Positions 4,540 through 34,308 of a stretch of 64,000 nucleotides of DNA are shown in pieces. The stretch is from the sequence record MW748999.1. One strand, 5' to 3'. Within the stretch, counting starts at the first letter, position 1. Each line of letters opens with the position of its first letter. The DNA comes from Escherichia phage vB_EcoM_Skers. The position numbers and the translations under genes are program-made. The notes under the pieces were generated by a model. The model saw only the letters and a list, made by a program, of their open reading frames with translations, made no database searches and was not told where the DNA came from.

Positions 4540-6363
4540 TTATGATTGCATCCAAATTTTGCGTTGATCTGCATCTTCACTATAGAGCAAATCGAATAGC
4601 TCTTTATAGTTTTCCGGTAACGTGATGATCTCCATTACAGGATCGTTGATCACGCGATGATAATCTGATTCTGTAAGCGATGCTAACCCTTTGATATATC
4701 GAATGTTGTAACCTTTGATATTATCTCGGTCGTTCTCGAAATCTTCTAGGTCATAATACCATCGAACATCATCACCTTTCTTTGGTTCCGCAATGATAAT
4801 AGGTGTTTTGATAAACCGGATTCGACCATCTTCGAACAATTCAGGCCAACGAGCAAAGAAAGAGATCAGACTAGGCTTAATAGACCCGATCCCGTCGGTA
4901 TCAGCGTCTGTCATAATCGCAATATTTTTGTATTGCATAACTTCCAATGCATCAACACCAAATTGCAAACCAGTGATCGCCATGATGTTAAAAATTTCAG
5001 CGTTCTTAACGATCTTTGCCTCCGGTTGTTCCCACGTTGTAAGAGTTTTGCCTCGCAACGGGAAACCGCCATGTAAATCTTGATCACGTACAGAGATCAG
5101 ATAGTTGATCGCGGAATCACCTTCCGTCAAAAACAGGGTAGTTTCTGCGTCAGTTCCAATAAGGTTAGCTTTAACGTGCTTTGCTACCTTAGCCCGTTTT
5201 GCTGCCTTTGCTGCCTTAGTCGCTGCCGCTTTATCTGCTGCCTCTTTGCGTGCCAGGACTACAGCAATAATAGGCATGATAATGTTTTCTTTCTTCGCAA
5301 TGACTTTAGCCAGCTTTTTAAAATCAAGATCAATATGACGCTTGATATCACCAGTCGGGTTAGTCAAGCGTTCTTTTGTCTGTGAATCAAAACGAAGGTT
5401 AGGCAATTCACGAACAATAAGAATACAGGTCAATCCAGATTTAACCGCAGCTTTAGTAACATCAACCTTATATTCTTTTTTGATTCGTTTTACAATCTCT
5501 TCACAAAGATCATCTGTCACATAATCAACGTGTGTTCCCCCGTTTTTGGTAAACAGACCGTTAGCAAAGGATACTGATTTAAAACCTTCTCCCTCGACCG
5601 CCGGAACGAGGGCAAGTGAAAAGTTTTTATCTTCAATGACAAACGGATCATCATTGTATAGTTTGGCATAATCCTTGAACTTGCTGGTTATCTTTTTGCC
5701 ATTAAACTTAAACGTGATCTTAGGAAAGATTACACTCAATGAATACATTCGATCGCAAATCACATCTGAAATTTCTTGTGACATGATCATACCTTCAAAA
5801 TGATCGAAATCGGGGCAGAACGTAACCTTAGTTCCTTTCAGTTTTGACGGCTTAGATGACCAGCTAATATTTTCTGCACCATTGGTACATTGAACGGTCA
5901 GTTCATTCTCTCCGTCACACGTCACACCAGTAAACCAGGACGAGAAAAATGATGTGAGCGCGCTTCCGATCCCATTCATACCCATAGTAACACGATTTGT
6001 ATCATCAAAGTTAGACCCTGCTTTAGCTCGTGTCCATGCAGCAACTGGTTGTGGAATCTGTTTCCCCTCTGGCGTCGTAACAATATGTTGCGGAATACCG
6101 CGACCATTATCTGTTACTGACACAATGTTATCTTTTATATCCACACTAATAACATTAGCGTACTCAAAATTAGTGCGGATCGCCTCGTCTACCGAGTTGT
6201 CGATGATCTCATCAATGATTTTAACCAGTCCAGGAACGTATGAAACTTTGGTCCATTTTCCAAATAGGAAACGATTGTGTGATTCATAAGTCGTTGACCC
6301 GATGTACATTGAAGGTCTCTTAAGACAGTGAGCGCGATCATCTAACAGCAAAAATTCAGACAT
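4540..6363 (-). CDS. 39: DNA topoisomerase II large subunit, unsplit (T4 gene 39 plus gene 60 equivalent in one ORF)
   Basis: 607 aa; N-terminus KRPSMYIGS..FGKW..YVPGLVKIIDEIIDNSVDEAIRT (GHKL ATPase) and C-terminal Toprim motif IAIMTDADTDG. Confidence 0.9.
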   Translation of the reverse strand: MSEFLLLDDRAHCLKRPSMYIGSTTYESHNRFLFGKWTKVSYVPGLVKIIDEIIDNSVDEAIRTNFEYANVISVDIKDNIVSVTDNGRGIPQHIVTTPEGKQIPQPVAAWTRAKAGSNFDDTNRVTMGMNGIGSALTSFFSSWFTGVTCDGENELTVQCTNGAENISWSSKPSKLKGTKVTFCPDFDHFEGMIMSQEISDVICDRMYSLSVIFPKITFKFNGKKITSKFKDYAKLYNDDPFVIEDKNFSLALVPAVEGEGFKSVSFANGLFTKNGGTHVDYVTDDLCEEIVKRIKKEYKVDVTKAAVKSGLTCILIVRELPNLRFDSQTKERLTNPTGDIKRHIDLDFKKLAKVIAKKENIIMPIIAVVLARKEAADKAAATKAAKAAKRAKVAKHVKANLIGTDAETTLFLTEGDSAINYLISVRDQDLHGGFPLRGKTLTTWEQPEAKIVKNAEIFNIMAITGLQFGVDALEVMQYKNIAIMTDADTDGIGSIKPSLISFFARWPELFEDGRIRFIKTPIIIAEPKKGDDVRWYYDLEDFENDRDNIKGYNIRYIKGLASLTESDYHRVINDPVMEIITLPENYKELFDLLYSEDADQRKIWMQS

Positions 6364-18043: not shown

Positions 18044-20722
18044 TTAAATGTCAAACAGGTCAGTCAGAGAAGCAACTTTTTCATATTGCAGCTTTGCAGC
18101 CGTGGTAATGTTCTCCAGTGGTTTGACGAAAGTCTTATTAAACAACAAAGGCCAGTCCAACCACTTCAACACCTCTGATTCAATTTCTGGCGGAATACGA
18201 GTACCGGACAACCAACCAAAACAGATTTCTCCAAACGGATTTCGATCTTTAAGCGGTACAATCATAACCTTCTCGCCTTCACGAATCGGATCTAGTCCGA
18301 ATTTTCGAGCATTACGATTATAACACAATACACTCTTAACCGCATACGGACAACCCTTAATCGGATACCCGTTTGAATCGCTGTATTTCTGTAGGTTGTT
18401 TGCAGATGATACCGCAGCAACCTCAAGATAGTCAAGTTTTCTAAACTCTTGCTCAAAAATACCGTAGTATTCCTGCAATGACTCTTCACCTTCCTGCAAC
18501 ATACGGCGAATACATTCTTTCAGTGATTTCTGACATGCTTTAGGGGTGGAGCTACGTTGCGTTTCCAAGCCCATGATTTTTAGCTTAGGCTCAGCAAAGC
18601 GCGTTCCTTCCATATCCCAAACATTAAGAGCATAACGCTTTTTGCCAGTCCAGAATCCACCGATACCCGCAGATTTCAACGGAGGACCAGCAATTGCCTC
18701 ACGGTCCATAAACATCAAGTGCTCATAGTTGTTCATGTACTCGCATAACTCGCGATATCCCTTGTCGATAATCGGTTCCATTCTATGTTTACCGAAATTA
18801 TCAAGGAAGTCAACAAGTTTTTCGGTATCGTCGAAACGATCTTCCCCGCCAACCTTATCAACAACATTGTTAACCAGCACATAAACGGAGTCAGTATCAC
18901 AATAACGAACATATGCAAAATCAGTTGTTCCGCAAAGCTCGTTTAAGTATTCGTTAATCTTGCGCTCAATCCACTGAATTGCAAGCTGACCGAACAAGGT
19001 GATCGCACTAGCGTTGCGGAGATCATAAAAACGGAATTTAGGATTCCCCAACGCACCATAAAGGGAGTTGATCAAAACTTTTCGAGAAAGCTGGTTTGTA
19101 TTGCACAAGATCGACTCGTCTTTACATTCTTCCAGCAATTTCTCTAAGGCATCTTTACTTAATTCAGAAAGCATCGATTTAAACGCTTCATCGAAGTCGT
19201 GACGTACTTCAACGCTATAGCTAATGGTTCCCCCATAAACATGATTTTCATCGTGTAGAATCGCTTTACAGAGTTCAGCATTGCGATCACATGCCAACAT
19301 CATGTTTTTGTACTGCTTACGCTGATCGAATACCTTTTTAATCTCAATAGGTACGATACCGTGAATATCTTTTCTATACATCCATCCGTTAGGCGAGCAA
19401 GAATACTCATCACTCGGACGTGGTGCAGTTTTATTGATATACTCGTGCATCGGTGCAGCATCAAAAGATCCGGCGATTGTTTCCGGCGAAATGTTAACCT
19501 GTCGAATAATAGATGGATACAGACTTGTTAGGTCAAAGCTCATCATCCAACGGTAAGCATTCGGCACAGGTTCTTTTACAAATGCGCCTGGATACGTCTG
19601 CTTAGGATGTATCTTATTTTCCGGTACTACTTTACCCTCAGCTTTCAGAGATCCGAAGATAATAGCATCCCATACTTTCATCGGGTTATAAACATGGTTA
19701 AATTTAATCTTTGCATAGAAACATAGGCTATACACCAGATCGATAAATCCGCGCTTTTTATCAATCGCCAGCACACGATCAACGTCGCCGATGTTATAAT
19801 CGATGTAAAGTTGATGGTTGTCATCACGCAATTTCTTTAACGGACCATCATAATCAACCTTACCGATTCCGGTCTCATATTCAGCAACATAATCTAATGC
19901 ATATGTTGGTTGAGTCGTAAAGCTAAACTTCTTGTACAGGTCAATATAATCAAGGCTTTCGATCCCCATGATCGTAAATGCTTCACGCTCGTTGCCAAAA
20001 TCATCCTGTGAGATTCGGGATTTAATCTTACCGCACGGGCTTAGACGGTTTGCCGTTCGACTTCCAAACTTATTCCCGATACGTTTAATGATATATGGAA
20101 TATCGAATGTTTCTGTGTTCCAGCCAGTGAAACCAACGGGTCGGTTTTCCTCAAAGAATCGGATGTATTCTAACAGCAATTCATCTTCTGTGTCATAGAC
20201 GTTATAAACAACGCGCTCTACAATATCAGGTCGAAGAATAGACTTGCTAGATTCCCAGATTTCACCGTTTTTTCCTTTCAAATCAAATACAAAGAAACGA
20301 TCATGTACGGAATCATAATGCGTAATTGCATCGATAGGATATTTCGCTTCTTCTGGTTTAGGAAATTCTGGGGCAGTGACCTCAATATCAACCCATGCTA
20401 CACGGATTTTATTTCGGTCATATCGAATCTCGCCTTTATATGTATCGGACAGATAGGAGATGATAAAATCATCCATCCCTAGTGCCTCCTGCCCCATTTC
20501 TCCCATCTTTTTACGCCATTTGTTGGCCTCGTTCATAGATGGGAATTTTTTAGCAATGCAAGGCTTGCCGTAGATATCTTTATAATTCGTAACCATACCA
20601 GGCGCGGCATGATGAAATAAAGTTGGCATATATTCAACGTAACGCTCTTGTTCTTGTCCAGCATCATCAATATAACGCTCGTAGATCTTATCACCCACTC
20701 GCTCACATGACAGAAAATACAT
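18044..20722 (-). CDS. 43: DNA polymerase (family B); start at MYFLS, not the upstream ATG of the track ORF
   Basis: Exo motif WVDIEV, pol motifs DLTSLYPSII and CDTDS; AAGGAG SD 9 nt upstream of ATG at 20722. Confidence 0.9.
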   Translation of the reverse strand: MYFLSCERVGDKIYERYIDDAGQEQERYVEYMPTLFHHAAPGMVTNYKDIYGKPCIAKKFPSMNEANKWRKKMGEMGQEALGMDDFIISYLSDTYKGEIRYDRNKIRVAWVDIEVTAPEFPKPEEAKYPIDAITHYDSVHDRFFVFDLKGKNGEIWESSKSILRPDIVERVVYNVYDTEDELLLEYIRFFEENRPVGFTGWNTETFDIPYIIKRIGNKFGSRTANRLSPCGKIKSRISQDDFGNEREAFTIMGIESLDYIDLYKKFSFTTQPTYALDYVAEYETGIGKVDYDGPLKKLRDDNHQLYIDYNIGDVDRVLAIDKKRGFIDLVYSLCFYAKIKFNHVYNPMKVWDAIIFGSLKAEGKVVPENKIHPKQTYPGAFVKEPVPNAYRWMMSFDLTSLYPSIIRQVNISPETIAGSFDAAPMHEYINKTAPRPSDEYSCSPNGWMYRKDIHGIVPIEIKKVFDQRKQYKNMMLACDRNAELCKAILHDENHVYGGTISYSVEVRHDFDEAFKSMLSELSKDALEKLLEECKDESILCNTNQLSRKVLINSLYGALGNPKFRFYDLRNASAITLFGQLAIQWIERKINEYLNELCGTTDFAYVRYCDTDSVYVLVNNVVDKVGGEDRFDDTEKLVDFLDNFGKHRMEPIIDKGYRELCEYMNNYEHLMFMDREAIAGPPLKSAGIGGFWTGKKRYALNVWDMEGTRFAEPKLKIMGLETQRSSTPKACQKSLKECIRRMLQEGEESLQEYYGIFEQEFRKLDYLEVAAVSSANNLQKYSDSNGYPIKGCPYAVKSVLCYNRNARKFGLDPIREGEKVMIVPLKDRNPFGEICFGWLSGTRIPPEIESEVLKWLDWPLLFNKTFVKPLENITTAAKLQYEKVASLTDLFDI

Positions 20723-28625: not shown

Positions 28626-28715
28626 AGTCTCTTCCTCTCTTCGTTTTCGATGCTCTCACTATATCACAGAAAAATAAAAAGGGAAACCCCTTTCAGAGTC
28701 TCCCTTATAAAGCCA

Positions 28716-29030: not shown

Positions 29031-29238
29031 TTATTAAAGAAAATTCATCTTCTGATACATTATAGCTATGTGAGATTGTACCCGTCAAGACCTCAAGATC
29101 CGGTGATTTGATATTGCACGGATCGATAATCACCGGAACGCCGCAATCTCTCAAAAATAATTTGGCGAAATACGGCACAAGGTCAGTTTCAAACTCTGCT
29201 TCTTCCAGCAAACGGGAAATGTTAATTTTCAATCTCAT
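29005..29238 (-). CDS. hypothetical small protein
   Basis: 77-aa minus-strand ORF. Confidence 0.35.
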
Positions 29239-29755
29239 AAAATTGGTCCAGGCTAGGCAATTCCTCGGTCAATACATCTTCAACCTTTGGCGCTTTCGGT
29301 TTATTGACCGATTCCTCGTAGTTGTTGATTTTATCGTAAATGTCCTGTATGAATGCCTCATCAGCAATCTGGCACATATCAGCGTCGCGTTCGTCATATA
29401 CATGATGCACAAAATATTTGTATTTTGCGGCTGTCGCTGTTCTCTCTTTTTTAATGCGCTGTACAAAAGCATTAAAGCACGCTTGCGTGATGTAAGCATG
29501 AGGATTTTTATACTTTGTCTCGTCAAAATTAATCAAACCCTTGACCGCCGCTTCGATTCCGTCGTCGATCATTTCTTCGCGCCATGTTTGACTATAACCA
29601 GAAAAGTTAAAACGACGTGATAGATTTTTAGAGATTTGCATAATTGCTAGGCCGATTTGATCGCTCATTGGAACTTGCCGACCTTCTGCTGCAATTCGTT
29701 GTTTCCAACGGCAAATTTCTTCGTAAAGCTCTTTATTGTTTACATAATCAGACAC
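29222..29755 (-). CDS. 55: late-transcription sigma factor
   Basis: [55 protein letters not shown] match T4 gp55 almost exactly. Confidence 0.9.
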
Positions 29756-29795: not shown

Positions 29796-31265
29796 CTATT
29801 CCCCATTACCATTATACTTTCTTTGTTTAGTTATCCACACTCTAACCATCTCTACTGATTCACCGTCAGACGGGTCAAGAGTTTTTCCCTTTTTCTTCAT
29901 GCGGTACTTAAATCCGTTAAATCTTGCATTCTCTTGTTCGTTAAAGTCGAACATCTTTTTAAATGATTTTCGCCCTTTACGCTCACCACATTCTAGCGGA
30001 ATCATTCGGTCTGTTATTACATTGGCATTAGGTAGAAACGTTTTTAGATAATCGACCAACGCCCAATCAGGAACATATAGATTAACATTCTCCTTGCTCT
30101 CGTTGTCTCTCAGGTTACAACGCAAACATAATTGAAATGCTGGTTCCAGATAATCAGACACATGACGCGCTTTCAAAAACTCGTTTGTTGGGAGATCGCA
30201 ACTATTAGCAAGACCTTTTAAAATATCAATCTCCCATCGTTGAGGGTTAAAGCTGAACATCACAGCAACATTTTTATGATGAATGTAAGAGTTAAGACCA
30301 TAAGATCCGTAAGGTATCCGCTCACCAATACCATTTGTACACGCTTCACGGTCCCGATTCACGGTATAAATGAAGTCATCGCCACATTCATTTTTAACCA
30401 TATCAACAAGACGTTCAAAGGTATTGTTTGTTTCTGACTGGTGACGAGACCATCGTTCGGAGTCCGTCATAAGGATGATGTTAACTCTATCTGTATTTTT
30501 ATACTCTTTGAAATATAGTCTGGATTCTAGCGCACTCGGAACAAAATCGCAATTTGCATAGTATCGTAGATACTTCCCACTATATGTATCAAAGAGATTT
30601 GCACATGCTATCGTAACCTTTTTAAAGTCTCCCCACGTACCGTGTTTGTTATCGTTCAAGAAAACAATTTTCGACCCATTCTTCCGGTGTCCTTCGTTAT
30701 GTTTTACCATAACGTTGATTTTCTTCTCTAATAACGCCTCATAAAGCCCTCTAAGAGAAGAATCGATCATATCAGTACCATCCTTTGCACTTTCTATCTT
30801 TTCTTTGATAGCGGCCTTCTCAGAGTCTTTTAGAACTAAGTTCTGTAGGCATTCCGATTCGTCGGCGATTGGTTCGCAATGCTTCGTGATAAGTTCAAGA
30901 TTAGACTTAAACGGATACTCATTAAATTCAACCAGTTGAGGAACTTCATCAATATAAAGAGCATATTCACTAAACATTTTTGAACGTTCCATATTAGATA
31001 ACGCTGTATGTGTGATGAATATCACATCAGCACCATCTTTAACTGATTGCATTATCGACGCTTGCACTGTCTTAAGGCTTCTTAGTCTGGTGCTATCAAT
31101 CAAGACAGCACGACCGCCCATTCTTTTAAACTTATTGTAAGATTGTTCACTTAAAACACGAGATGGCGAAGCAATAACCGCTTTTTCTTTTGTCTCTAGG
31201 ACGTGGGAAAGTATAGCATCCGTTTTCCCCGCCGCTGGCAATGCGATTAATGTTTCAATCTTCAT
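29796..31265 (-). CDS. P-loop NTPase-like protein of unknown function (489 aa)
   Basis: Deviant Walker A ALPAAGKT, Ia-like IASPSRVL, Walker B-like YIDEVPQ; no T4 counterpart recognised. Confidence 0.5.
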   Translation of the reverse strand: MKIETLIALPAAGKTDAILSHVLETKEKAVIASPSRVLSEQSYNKFKRMGGRAVLIDSTRLRSLKTVQASIMQSVKDGADVIFITHTALSNMERSKMFSEYALYIDEVPQLVEFNEYPFKSNLELITKHCEPIADESECLQNLVLKDSEKAAIKEKIESAKDGTDMIDSSLRGLYEALLEKKINVMVKHNEGHRKNGSKIVFLNDNKHGTWGDFKKVTIACANLFDTYSGKYLRYYANCDFVPSALESRLYFKEYKNTDRVNIILMTDSERWSRHQSETNNTFERLVDMVKNECGDDFIYTVNRDREACTNGIGERIPYGSYGLNSYIHHKNVAVMFSFNPQRWEIDILKGLANSCDLPTNEFLKARHVSDYLEPAFQLCLRCNLRDNESKENVNLYVPDWALVDYLKTFLPNANVITDRMIPLECGERKGRKSFKKMFDFNEQENARFNGFKYRMKKKGKTLDPSDGESVEMVRVWITKQRKYNGNGE

Positions 31266-31570
31266 TAGAAACCCTTACGTCGTGCTTTCTGGCATTTCTT
31301 GATCATTTTATCAGAAATTTCGCGCTTAGGTGCAATCTCTTTCACACCGAAAGCACTAATGCCAAATTCAGAGAGAATATATTCAACTAACAATTCACGC
31401 ACACGCGCTTTACCGATATTCACGCCGTTATTTTTCAGATATGTCTGGCCTTCGACTTGCATCAGATCTAAATCTGCGTCGGTAATATTGATTTCTTCCA
31501 TGCGCCCAAATCGAGAATAAACCATGTGTGCGATTGCATTGTGTACTAACATAATATATTCCTCACTCAA
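31265..31570 (-). CDS. hypothetical protein
   Basis: 101-aa ORF; ATGA overlap with downstream gene. Confidence 0.4.
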   Translation of the reverse strand: MSEEYIMLVHNAIAHMVYSRFGRMEEINITDADLDLMQVEGQTYLKNNGVNIGKARVRELLVEYILSEFGISAFGVKEIAPKREISDKMIKKCQKARRKGF

Positions 31571-31573
31571 GAA

Positions 31574-31732
31574 TTACTTAATGATACTTACTTTACCAGA
31601 TCCGTGACAATGAGCACAACACCCATCACCACGCAATCCTGTTCCGTTACAGTGTTTACACTTCTTCAACGGTAAAGTCATTATAGCAAATAAAGCAATA
31701 ATGAACACCGAAACTAAATTCTCAATAATCAT
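31574..31732 (-). CDS. small membrane-anchored zinc-ribbon protein (52 aa)
   Basis: ORF MIIENLVSVFIIALFAIMTL...CKHCNGTG..CCAHCHGSG; not in track. Confidence 0.35.
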   Translation of the reverse strand: MIIENLVSVFIIALFAIMTLPLKKCKHCNGTGLRGDGCCAHCHGSGKVSIIK

Positions 31733-31991
31733 AAATCGCCCTCAGTTCTTTATAGCCTCCAATGTGCTCGTTGTCAATGAATATCTGGGGGTATACAAAC
31801 CGGAGGCTCTTTGAGTTCAGCCTCCCCGCCAGTTCTTCAATCATATCACGGTCGGGAATAATGTCAACCCCGACCTGCTTGAATACTGGTTTAAGTGTAT
31901 ACGGAATACCCAGATCATCCAGTAGCTTCATTGCACTAATACAACCATAACAATGATAAGCCTCTTTCGGTATACCGTATATCTCGATCAT
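31722..31991 (-). CDS. nrdH: glutaredoxin-like protein (NrdH-type redoxin)
   Basis: 89 aa; CYGC redox motif near N-terminus and C-terminal IGGY; position upstream of nrdG region. Confidence 0.6.
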   Translation of the reverse strand: MIEIYGIPKEAYHCYGCISAMKLLDDLGIPYTLKPVFKQVGVDIIPDRDMIEELAGRLNSKSLRFVYPQIFIDNEHIGGYKELRAIYDY

Positions 31992-32488
31992 TTCTCAGCC
32001 TTTAATCTTTCTAGTTCTTCTTCCAGTTCCTTGATCCGTTGGTCACGTTCAAAGTCACGCTGTATCTTAGTGGCGAATACTCGTTTAAACTGATTGTAAT
32101 CATCGATTTTAAACACTTCTTCTTCGCCATAGCGACGCACAGAAACTTCGTAGTTATTGAAGAATTGTTGCATCATTGCTTCGGATGATAGCTCTGCTGA
32201 TACCACTTTAAAATATTGATCTTCGGTAGGTGAAAACCAATTACAAGCATAAAGATAAACCTTTTCATTGTCTGGACACTGGTAAGCCTTACCATCGATT
32301 TCAATCACAGAAACATATTCAGGTATACTAGATGAATCAATAGCTAAGACTTTAAACGCACGGTCCCCGATAAACTCGGAGATCACACGATTCGCATCAC
32401 TGGTTGCAAATGCTTTACGCGCTTGTTCGTTTTTCCACTGATAGGTCATACCAACAACAAACATATTACCAACCTCGCTCTTTACCAA
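31988..32488 (-). CDS. repeat-domain/coiled-coil paralogue family member A1 (1 domain)
   Basis: GMTYQWKNEQARKAF...AFKVLAID...IEIDGKAYQ...YFKVV then coiled-coil tail; paralogous to 32466-34308 and 38123-40820. Confidence 0.55.
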   Translation of the reverse strand: MVKSEVGNMFVVGMTYQWKNEQARKAFATSDANRVISEFIGDRAFKVLAIDSSSIPEYVSVIEIDGKAYQCPDNEKVYLYACNWFSPTEDQYFKVVSAELSSEAMMQQFFNNYEVSVRRYGEEEVFKIDDYNQFKRVFATKIQRDFERDQRIKELEEELERLKAEK

Positions 32489-33290
32489 TCAAAAATTCAA
32501 CTTCACGACGTTTAATGTCTTCTTGAAGGTCTTTAATCTTCTGGCGATCTTGCATTATTTCATCCATCTTGTCAAGTGCCGCAATGAAATCATCGAAACG
32601 TTCAAAGGTTTTACCTTCATTTGCTTCGCCAAATTTAACCATTGTCAGGCCATAACGACTACTAAAAAGACGCTTCAACTGTCCAACGATCTTAGAATCA
32701 GTGGTTATAACTTCCAATTCTTCTACTTCTTGAAAGAATTTTCTATCAGAATCAATAAACCAGCTAGTTCCTTTATGGTCGCTATCTTCTGTTGCACTCA
32801 TTAGAGTATGGTCTTTACCATCAATTTCAATTACATTAACTTGCCCACATAGACTAACATTTTTAACAGTAAAAGGTCTATAATTTATTGCTCGTGCAAT
32901 AACATAATTAAGGTTAGATACGTTTTCAGCATAATGACAGAAGTCGGTCATAGCATTCGCATCTTTCCAAGTATAAGTTTTACCAACTTCCCATTTCTGG
33001 GGAACTTCTTCAACTTCACGAAAGAATTTTCGATCGAATGGACTAAAGAAATATGTTGCAGTCCAAATGTCTTTTCCTGTAGCAGTTTTCGCCGTATGAT
33101 AAACACCGTCTAGCTCTATTGCATTAATCCAACCGTTACCCTCGATCTCGATGATGGTAAATGGCTTGTCACCAATAGCTGCACTAATATCGCTGTTAAG
33201 TGGAGAAAGAACACCTTCTCCGTTAGTAATAAACTCAGTTTTAGCGTTTTCATCTTTCCAAGTGTAAGTTTTACCAATTTCCCATTTCAT
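32466..33290 (-). CDS. paralogue family member A2 (2 tandem domains + coiled-coil tail)
   Basis: Two internal copies beginning KWEIGKTYTWKDENA and KWEVGKTYTWKDANA, each ending RKFF.EVEE. Confidence 0.55.
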   Translation of the reverse strand: MKWEIGKTYTWKDENAKTEFITNGEGVLSPLNSDISAAIGDKPFTIIEIEGNGWINAIELDGVYHTAKTATGKDIWTATYFFSPFDRKFFREVEEVPQKWEVGKTYTWKDANAMTDFCHYAENVSNLNYVIARAINYRPFTVKNVSLCGQVNVIEIDGKDHTLMSATEDSDHKGTSWFIDSDRKFFQEVEELEVITTDSKIVGQLKRLFSSRYGLTMVKFGEANEGKTFERFDDFIAALDKMDEIMQDRQKIKDLQEDIKRREVEFLIGKERGW

Positions 33291-33302
33291 AATATATTCC
33301 CC

Positions 33303-33782
33303 TTAACCGATTTTATCAAGTTCGTTTAATGCTTTCTCTGCTTCCTGTATAGCTTGCACCCTTTCCGGCATTTTGTCAAGAAAATCTTTCAACTCTTCAA
33401 AACTGGAGATATGACGCAAGGCGTTAGCACCGATAGCTGCATGTGATTTGCATTCAAAGCGGATTTTATAATTATCCATAGCCAGCTTGAGTAGGTCCAT
33501 TAGTTTAGATTCTTCTGGAATACTAATTTCTTCAAATCTGCTACGGTCGTGATCCAGAAACCAACAATATAGACCTACATCGGTTGAACTCATATAAGTT
33601 CCATCATGAAGATATACAGATCGCACGTATCCTTTTTTCGCATCAACCGACGCAACTTTAAACGGTAATCGCAGATATTTCAAATAATCAACATCATACC
33701 ATTTAAAAAATTGGTTTGCATCTTTTACATCTTTCCATACATAGGTCTTACCAGCTTCCCATTTCATAATATCATCTCTCAT
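33303..33782 (-). CDS. paralogue family member A3
   Basis: KWEAGKTYVWKD...RSRFEEI then helical tail with FLDKMP motif. Confidence 0.55.
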   Translation of the reverse strand: MRDDIMKWEAGKTYVWKDVKDANQFFKWYDVDYLKYLRLPFKVASVDAKKGYVRSVYLHDGTYMSSTDVGLYCWFLDHDRSRFEEISIPEESKLMDLLKLAMDNYKIRFECKSHAAIGANALRHISSFEELKDFLDKMPERVQAIQEAEKALNELDKIG

Positions 33783-34308
33783 TTTTGATACGTGATTCTA
33801 ATTGGATCATACGGTCGCGCGTTTGTTTGTATTCTCGGATAGCACCGATCCGGCTAGGCATACCATCCAGTACGCTCTTAATACCTTCTAGGGTAGTAAT
33901 TTTGGCAATGCTATTATGTAACCCCATCTTATCGATCAACTGAATGTCGTAGGCTTCCATAAGCAGACCCAGGCGTTCTAAAGTTAGGTCTTCTTCTTTT
34001 TCTTCTGAATCTGGAATCTTAGGTTCAATAGTAACTTCGGTAAAGAAACGACGCTCACCCGACCAAAACCACACACCAGAACAACCAATAGGGGATTCTT
34101 TTAACGTCATAGAGTCGAAATCACTACCAATAATAGTAATTTCTCTAACATCACCATCATCGTCAAGGTCTTCTACCCTAAACGGGCGACCAGCCAACAA
34201 GTCAACAATACATCTGTTAATAAACGACGAAAATTTAGTCAGTTCGGCTTTCGACGCTTCGCATTCGATCTTGTAAGTTTTACCAACTTCCCATTCCATA
34301 ATAATCAC
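33772..34308 (-). CDS. paralogue family member A4
   Basis: EWEVGKTYKIE...RRFFTEV then helical tail VLDGMP... Confidence 0.55.
   Translation of the reverse strand: MIIMEWEVGKTYKIECEASKAELTKFSSFINRCIVDLLAGRPFRVEDLDDDGDVREITIIGSDFDSMTLKESPIGCSGVWFWSGERRFFTEVTIEPKIPDSEEKEEDLTLERLGLLMEAYDIQLIDKMGLHNSIAKITTLEGIKSVLDGMPSRIGAIREYKQTRDRMIQLESRIKNER

Follow-up and report, generated by a model that had tools for sequence, protein, structure and literature searches.

The T4-type phages are the reference system for the biochemistry of replisomes and recombination, and two of the helicases of T4, UvsW and Dda, are monomeric DNA motors with RecA lobes that are encoded among the early genes. The XPD/Rad3/DinG group of superfamily 2 (SF2) includes 5'-to-3' DNA helicases of 550-740 amino acids (aa) with a DEAH motif II and, inserted between motifs Ia and II, an iron-sulphur (Fe-S) domain with four cysteines for a 4Fe-4S cluster, whereas CasDinG of type IV CRISPR systems and the Firmicute DinG proteins are Fe-S-free relatives. 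Herpesvirus UL9 (Pfam Herpes_ori_bp), in turn, is an SF2 helicase that takes part in the initiation of viral replication and carries a C-terminal origin-binding domain. Here, we have analysed a gene for a 489-aa protein at positions 29796-31265, on the minus strand, of a stretch of 64,000 nucleotides (nt) of Escherichia phage vB_EcoM_Skers (MW748999.1), hereafter the window, which is a segment of a Krischvirus (RB49-like) genome; all features of the window given below lie on the same strand. With a probability of roughly 0.6, we consider its product to be an active stand-alone SF2 motor acting on nucleic acids, most likely as a DNA helicase or translocase, with an accessory role in replication initiation or restart or in recombination. 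Like UvsW and Dda, both of which RB49 has as well, it would be a monomeric DNA motor with RecA lobes from among the early genes.

The open reading frame (ORF) is complete, running from ATG to TAG with its stop codon at 29796-29798, and is the orthologue of RB49p044 (RB49ORF044c); an earlier note, made from the letters of the window, had given the same positions and the same length of 489 aa, and the list of ORFs bears them out. Its start codon overlaps the stop of the upstream gene (TAATG), a Shine-Dalgarno-like AAGGG lies 8-12 nt 5' of it, and the opposite strand holds short ORFs only (65 aa or less). The GC content of the 1470-bp stretch is 0.389, that of the window 0.402. In its nucleotide sequence, the stretch shares 98.9% identity with RB49 and 99.0% with Shigella phage Sf20, Shigella phage JK32 encodes the very same protein (100% identity), and 15 of the 16 nucleotide differences to the RB49 gene are synonymous. 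The ORF is genuine, lies far beyond chance expectation and is under purifying selection.

Invariance of residues was scored in an alignment of 42 homologues with identities down to 32%. Motif I (Walker A) reads ALPAAGKT (residues 8-15; 31221-31244), with P10, G13, K14 and T15 invariant; it is followed by a motif Ia-like IASPSR (residues 31-36; 31158-31175; S33 invariant), a motif Ib-like FITHTAL (residues 83-89; 30999-31019; F83, T85 and L89 invariant) and motif II (Walker B), YIDEVP (residues 104-109; 30939-30956), of which D106, E107 and P109 are invariant even when relatives of about 800 aa, described below, are included. These four motifs were found where the earlier note had placed them, yet its description of the Walker A motif as deviant does not hold, since the sequence matches the canonical [AG]-x4-G-K-[ST]. 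The note had also left some 350 aa behind motif II free of assignable motifs and had proposed looking there for motifs III to VI. This part in fact displays a motif III-like TIACAN (residues 218-223; 30597-30614), with T218 and N223 conserved in at least 90% of the homologues, a motif V-like YGLNSY (residues 322-327, within PYGSYGLNSY; G323 and N325 invariant) and a motif VI-like FQLCLRCNLR (residues 377-386), whose invariant Q378, R382 and R386 resemble arginine fingers. The last two lie in a second RecA-like lobe (residues 259-425; 29991-30491), together with the sequences FSFNP (337-341) and VPD (398-400). A Walker A motif (8-15) and a DEVP box (106-109), invariant in the 42 homologues as well as in 40 of the long relatives, are thus joined in one chain with a second lobe that carries motif V and the arginine fingers of motif VI, which is the composition of an SF2 helicase. 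Between motifs II and III, lobe 1 accommodates an insertion of about 105 residues (110-215; 30621-30938), delimited by predicted secondary structure, and the protein ends in a basic module (residues 426-489; 29799-29990), consisting of a disordered linker (426-431) and two helices, with E445 and W477 invariant. The very basic tail pointed out earlier is real: residues 426-489 have an isoelectric point of 9.9, with 17 lysines and arginines against nine aspartates and glutamates, and this module is confined to the subfamily of the T4-like phages.

The model calculated by AlphaFold2 on the 42-sequence alignment reached a mean predicted local distance difference test (pLDDT) of 87.7 and a predicted template modelling score of 0.77, with pLDDT values below 50 at residues 426-431 only. 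It reveals an alpha/beta lobe with motifs I-II and then the mixed alpha/beta insertion, after which lobe 1 is completed by strands that carry motif III; another alpha/beta lobe (259-425) and two C-terminal helices follow, so that the 489-aa protein can confidently be predicted to adopt a two-lobe SF2 helicase fold. Comparison of the model with known structures (score followed by extent of the match) ranked Finegoldia DinG first (18.2; 348), ahead of Type IV-A3 CasDinG (17.9; 326), XPD (17.9; 328), Rad3 (17.2; 330), Xpd4 (16.7; 315) and E. coli DinG (14.4; 368), while generic SF2 cores such as Ino80, HsdR and CSB gave about 14 over about 250 and T4 UvsW 12.1 over 160. The fold search suggested in the earlier note, a Foldseek search of the full-length model against the PDB, agreed with this, its top 14 matches being all DinG, CasDinG or XPD (E 7e-11 to 9e-8). 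A viral fold library yielded further relatives in Atu_ph07, phiRSL1, Fnu1, Motura and H101.

At the sequence level, the protein showed a marginal match to Pfam DEAD (residues 11-130, E 1.4e-6, 28.6 bits against a cut-off of 26), extending over motifs I-II only; together with the confident two-lobe model, this supports the earlier description as a P-loop nucleoside triphosphatase with helicase-type motifs. Among the PHROGs, phrog_2467 ("unknown function") covers residues 1-489 (E 2.6e-174) and phrog_31024 matches more weakly (E 8e-10). No match was obtained in NCBIfam, PADLOC gave a chance-level match only, and PDB searches with the protein and with its family profile gave no meaningful match. 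Pfam DEAD_2 and Helicase_C_2, searched up to E <= 1, were not matched either, and motif II reads DEVP instead of DEAH.

Compared with the XPD/Rad3/DinG group, the closest in overall architecture, the phage protein is therefore not a member by sequence, whereas the predicted architecture makes this group its nearest known neighbour, most of all the Fe-S-free CasDinG. Not even a vestige of the Fe-S domain is left: residues 1-110 are devoid of cysteines, C130 and C380 are the only family-wide invariant ones, and the interval between motifs Ia and II is only about 65 residues long. The phage protein is also shorter than the XPD/DinG proteins and ends in a basic module of its own. The same place between motifs II and III is taken in XPD-type helicases by the Arch domain, to which the insertion at 110-215 may be homologous.

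In a tblastn search, full-length homologues were found in 243 phage records, 58 of which belong to Krischvirus and are at least 95% identical. The remaining ones, 34-42% identical, come from other Straboviridae, including the RB43-type Pseudotevenvirus, the Aeromonas phages 44RR, 31, 25, PX29 and CC2, and phages of Proteus, Morganella, Serratia, Yersinia, Cronobacter, Enterobacter, Klebsiella and Erwinia; weak matches occurred in the Agrobacterium jumbo phage Atu_ph07 and in one Pseudoalteromonas phage. None of the 243 records is a Tequatrovirus, and the interval between genes 55 and 55.2 of T4 holds only the unrelated 87-aa 55.1 (a homology to 55.1 was rejected at E 2.4), so that the earlier statement that T4 has no counterpart stands. 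Both observations that the note had named as speaking against its reading, a clear homology to a T4 55.x protein or a missing P-loop fold, turned out the other way. A motor of 489 residues is accordingly carried by some 240 sequenced relatives and still deposited as "hypothetical protein".

The relatives of this protein reach well beyond phages. An exhaustive profile search of 1.84 billion representatives retrieved 1330 relatives at E <= 0.001 and 764 at E <= 1e-10, many of them about 800 aa in length. When the phage family was aligned with the N-terminal 430 aa of 40 of the long relatives, hhalign returned a probability of 100 (E 6e-66) over about 400 columns, and the long proteins keep the same invariant G-K, D-E, G..N and Q...R...R residues. 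The proteins of about 800 aa (PHROG 31024; named 'DEAD/DEAH box helicase family protein' at NCBI, e.g., in Bradyrhizobium) are hence true homologues over some 400 residues, and PHROG 2467 is matched by them and by the phage protein alike. We sorted the best 150 representatives with hidden Markov models built from the two halves of the long proteins, and found 76 helicase-only proteins (560 aa or less), 68 with helicase and extension, and six others. Where the long proteins have an extension of about 330 residues, the phage protein has its basic tail instead, ending 64 residues past lobe 2, and none of 42 phage-type sequences showed a profile match to the extension; tblastn of the extension against phage genomes gave no match as well.

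The extension of the long relatives has no match in Pfam. Scanned alone against the PHROGs, it matched 'DNA primase' families, namely phrog_9765 in eight of 13 members (best E 1.4e-12), phrog_2135 in four and phrog_17236 in two, and phrog_3228 ("replicative helicase-primase") in one, and a full-length scan of the long relatives gave phrog_9765 in 18 of 40 and Pfam PriCT_2 in one (4.9e-7). In the AlphaFold2 model of a 799-aa relative (P0043), the extension folds confidently: a strand that ends in D579-x-E581 is followed by the sequence GHSS, the strand FRVIIL, one helix and GLD661, and a bundle of helices with the signature "G-x-x-N-x-x-F...L...G" closes the chain. The succession of DxE, GHSS and GLD corresponds to motifs I, II and III of the archaeo-eukaryotic primases (AEP), followed by a PriCT-like domain. 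Profile matches and modelled motif order support, without proving it, that the extension is an AEP-type primase with a PriCT-like helical domain.

As for the genomic setting of the fusions, an 814-aa protein (P0220) is encoded on two metagenomic contigs (L009 and L010) behind a tyrosine integrase and an excisionase-type HTH_17 gene, and is followed on its 3' side by genes for Mrr_cat, PLDc, metallophosphatase and ADP-ribosylglycohydrolase-phosphatase proteins. With this gene order (8168-12445 of L009; 6023-10300 of L010), P0220 occupies the slot of the replicase in a small integrative island, which may be a defence island and whose replicase would be an SF2 helicase with a fused AEP-like primase. 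A 68% identical protein is encoded on the chromosome of a Bradyrhizobium, where an ATP-dependent DNA ligase gene is its neighbour, and a contig scan with P0043 gave no match. The nearest helicase-only relatives outside the T4-like phages are found on marine gammaproteobacterial chromosomes and a 146-kb contig, where they are unnamed or called "DEAD/DEAH box helicase family protein". A search of plasmids gave only three matches, all on Sinorhizobium megaplasmids (NC_017323.1, 1678761-1680056; NZ_CP021814.1; NZ_CP029232.1); these are 23-25% identical over about 420 aa and lie in stretches for which the PLSDB tables list no gene. Judged from the sequence comparisons, the phage protein belongs to a superfamily of helicases of viruses and mobile elements, about half of whose members are fused to an AEP-type primase-like module with a PriCT-like domain. 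Within it, the phage proteins form a distinct family, with XPD/DinG-type helicases as nearest structural neighbours and the helicase-primase fusions of mobile elements as nearest relatives in sequence. The phage gene is located in the replication and transcription block of lytic phages, whereas the fused gene for P0220 stands beside an integrase. Pairing a primase with a monomeric SF2 motor, and not with a hexameric helicase, is unusual for a replicase.

A helicase prediction for the RB49-type gene was made earlier, and it is no great surprise that a T4-type phage should have one more helicase. RB49ORF044c appears among the "novel ORFs" of Nolan et al. (2006; PMC1524935), with a Pfam DEAD/DEAH match at E 0.069; this was the only paper found in a literature search on gene identifiers and Krischvirus escape mutants. 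The 'pVOG 1685 / 9714-like helicase' of Kazlauskas et al. (2018), who relate a sister pVOG to UL9 (PMC5862659), is very probably the same family; membership of RB49p044 in pVOG 1685 could not be confirmed, as the supplements name no phage protein and the 966-aa representative P0107 is metagenomic. In the architectures of that study the primase is N-terminal (Prim+zf-CHC2+helicase), while in the fusions described here the helicase comes first. The RB43-type orthologue of Klebsiella phage phi1_146002 (PP889458.1, 2501-3928 of the examined stretch) has been deposited as 'DNA primase'; since the phage proteins are without a primase domain, this label is unjustified and looks like a transfer from the fused helicase-primase relatives. 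The family defined here is missing from Pfam and NCBIfam, and its placement within a superfamily corrects at least this one annotation and provides a concrete, testable function for a widespread "hypothetical protein" of RB49, RB43, 44RR and other enterobacterial and Aeromonas phages.

The gene keeps a conserved position in a block of early-strand genes next to genes 55 and 55.2. Gene 55, encoding the late sigma factor (29222-29755), begins 40 bp past the helicase stop, with no terminator-like site between the two, and the helicase gene is directly upstream of gene 55 in RB49, 44RR, Pm5461 and Cronus. RB43 has a rearranged genome, in which the helicase gene is followed by the gene for the proximal tail fibre; this is the large downstream ORF of RB43, for which a special role was considered and rejected. 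Upstream, and translationally coupled through the TAATG overlap, lies a homologue of 55.2 (31265-31552; 42% identity to T4 gp55.2, E 9e-20; Pfam DUF7570), which adjoins the helicase gene in RB49, Pm5461 and RB43 and is 1-2 kb away in Cronus and 44RR, with other ORFs between. In T4, gp55.2 is made early, acts as an inhibitor of E. coli topoisomerase I and causes R-loop-primed plasmids to reach a higher copy number (PMC4396842). Just 5' of the 55.2-helicase pair, a candidate sigma-70-like promoter (TTGTCA-18-TATCAT; 31581-31610) was recognised solely by its match to the consensus, at 10 of 12 positions.

The accessory motor that we favour would bind ATP at the P-loop (K14/T15) and the DE(V)P box (D106/E107), in the cleft between the lobes, and Q378, R382 and R386 would sense hydrolysis and couple it to lobe closure, so that the lobes could ratchet along single-stranded DNA, possibly 5' to 3' as in XPD and DinG, with the insertion and the basic tail adding DNA contacts. 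Made early and co-transcribed with the topoisomerase I inhibitor gp55.2, it might act beside gp41, gp61, Dda and UvsW in replication initiation or restart or in recombination-dependent replication. As RB49 encodes dda, 41, 61 and uvsX in this region and also has uvsW, the latter described by Nolan et al. (2006; PMC1524935), the 489-aa protein represents an additional helicase, not a replacement. Several points weigh against this proposal. With dda, 41, 61 and uvsX in the same region, RB49 already has a full helicase set. The PDB profile searches returned only generic motif I-Ia regions, of DEAD-box proteins, reverse gyrase and others, with no DinG or XPD chain among them, and the global TM-scores of the Foldseek matches are modest (0.42-0.51); as sequence profiles miss DinG and XPD, the likeness to them depends on a single predicted model. 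When the extension of the long relatives was used by itself to search PDB profiles, a weak ParB-C match to its helical end was the sole result, and no AEP family of Pfam matched it. Early expression is suggested by position, strand and the consensus promoter match only, and the literature contains no experimental work on any family member that we could find.

Other functions have to be weighed against the same data. The protein could be a replication initiator that, like UL9, opens origins or DNA structures and lets the gp41/gp61/gp59 primosome load, being a remnant of the helicase-primase replicases of integrative elements. That 68 of the 150 best representatives have the same module fused to a primase-like domain would suit such an origin, as would the two contigs on which the fused protein directly follows integrase and HTH_17 with no other recognisable replication genes nearby, a weak Pfam Herpes_ori_bp match in one long relative (E 0.0086) and the relation of the sister pVOG to UL9. 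The herpes origin-binding protein, however, came no higher than rank 46 when the viral fold library was searched (E 1.6e-6, TMq 0.34), Pfam searches found no sequence-specific DNA-binding domain in the phage protein, which is also devoid of the C-terminal origin-binding domain of the UL9 type, repeats of an origin-like kind did not show up beside the gene, though no search was aimed at them, and T4-type phages start replication without such a protein; we therefore regard an initiator as unlikely. Somewhat less probable still is a helicase that partners gp55.2 in R-loop metabolism or at conflicts between transcription and replication, removing the R-loops that are favoured by inhibition of topoisomerase I, or converting them to replication starts. 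E. coli DinG unwinds R-loops, and DinG-type helicases are the nearest structures; translational coupling to a true 55.2 homologue, the adjacency of both genes in RB49, Pm5461 and RB43 and the activity of T4 gp55.2 on topoisomerase I and R-loop-primed plasmids would likewise be in accordance with such a partnership. T4, by contrast, has 55.2 beside gene 55 but lacks the helicase gene, so that mere inheritance of gene order may explain why the two genes are neighbours, and the distance between both genes in Cronus and 44RR also argues against a functional pair.

That the protein is an RNA helicase for phage or host mRNA, or for ribosome-associated RNA, as the DEAD match might suggest, is quite improbable: this match is limited to motifs I-II, the Q-motif, SAT and HRIGR signatures are absent and motif II reads DEVP, DNA helicases make up the best structural matches, and relatives are fused to a DNA-primase-like domain. 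We give slightly less credit still to a role in DNA modification or counter-defence, at which the earlier note had hinted in asking whether the gene co-varies with glucosyltransferases. It is true that the region between genes 47 and nrdG is variable and holds a-gt in T4, and that the gene is absent from the T-even phages with glucosylated 5-hydroxymethylcytosine. Erwinia phage Cronus, however, carries both the helicase and an alpha-glucosyltransferase, for which reason the co-variation idea was rejected; besides, neither fold nor relatives show any sign of a modification enzyme, PADLOC gave no real match, and the place beside gene 55 is conserved across genera, unlike that of typical counter-defence cargo. 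Finally, a catalytically dead helicase fold with a purely structural or regulatory function could account for a motif II that ends in P and not in H or D, and for the very low sequence similarity to known helicases, yet it is most improbable in view of K14, T15, D106, E107, Q378, R382 and R386: these are all the residues that binding and hydrolysis of ATP require, and they are invariant over the whole superfamily.

The tail of the protein contains a candidate motif for binding the sliding clamp gp45, SFKKMFDF (residues 434-441; 29943-29966), in the peptide RKGRKSFKKMFDFNEQE; this assignment is speculative. It directly follows the low-confidence linker 426-431, and its consensus in the family is [ST]-F-Q-x-[ML]-[FY]-x-M. 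The clamp-binding epitopes of the same phage are the C-terminal ASLTDLFDI of gp43 (SLTDLFDI, 18047-18070) and the C-terminal SLDQFYEI of gp55 (29231-29254). The C-termini of gp43, gp55 and gp33 have been described as "highly similar hydrophobic and acidic" gp45 ligands that are interchangeable and functional internally in a fusion (PMC2988020). The pattern S-[LFIMV]-x-x-[LMFI]-[FY]-[DE]-[IFLMV] was written post hoc with all three sequences already seen; among all segments of the six-frame translation of the window (52,535 aa), it matches only gp43, gp55 and the helicase, once each, and about 0.3 matches are expected from shuffling of long segments. The helicase family has F-Q where the gp55 epitopes ([STN]-L-D-x-[FL]-Y-E) have L-D, family members differ at the acidic position, and the motif lies inside the chain, whereas the known ligands are normally at the extreme C-terminus. 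With a pLDDT of about 79, the segment may simply pack into the C-terminal module. Motif and tail occur in 35 of 42 close members and in none of 127 distant representatives, a restriction to the phage subfamily that fits a phage-specific partner without proving one. Judging from these peptides, it is doubtful, though conceivable, that the helicase is a new gp45 ligand in which a conserved internal peptide, placed behind the motor on a flexible basic linker, imitates the ends by which gp43 and gp55 bind the clamp. Were this so, an XPD/DinG-like motor would be held by its peptide on loaded clamps at forks or nicks and would work at the replisome, or else at the complex of replication-coupled late transcription, whose sigma factor is the product of the gene that follows, and the short list of T4-family clamp ligands would gain one helicase. 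It would also be a phage counterpart of the cellular XPD-family helicases bound to clamps or clamp loaders, of which RTEL1-PCNA and YoaA-chi are examples.

Some minor observations concern the surroundings of the gene. The gene that immediately precedes the helicase gene in Aeromonas phages is annotated as 'DprA-like DNA recombination-mediator protein' (187 aa; 44RR2.8t, 5441-6004 of the examined stretch), a label that is unverified, the 44RR protein having no Pfam match at E <= 0.1; were the label right, the helicase gene would have a second neighbour from DNA metabolism. The HNH homing-type endonuclease gene RB49p040 of RB49 (555 bp, between gene 47 and a-gt.4) is missing from the window at 28626-28715, where the coordinate offset to RB49 shifts by 570 bp and a terminator-like hairpin (28706-28679) is the sole feature. 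Just 5' of 55.2, a 52-aa ORF (31574-31732) encodes a hydrophobic N-terminal helix and two CxxCxGxG repeats (CKHCNGTG ... CAHCHGSG) with a weak match to a DnaJ-type zinc finger, and may represent a small membrane-anchored zinc-ribbon protein. Further upstream, between nrdH and nrdG, four consecutive unannotated ORFs (31988-32488, 32466-33290, 33303-33782 and 33772-34308; RB49p048-051) contain five copies of a module of about 95 aa that starts with W-E-x-GKTY-x-W-K-D, forming a tandem array of paralogues with pairwise identities of 27-31% (E 1e-6 to 1e-13).

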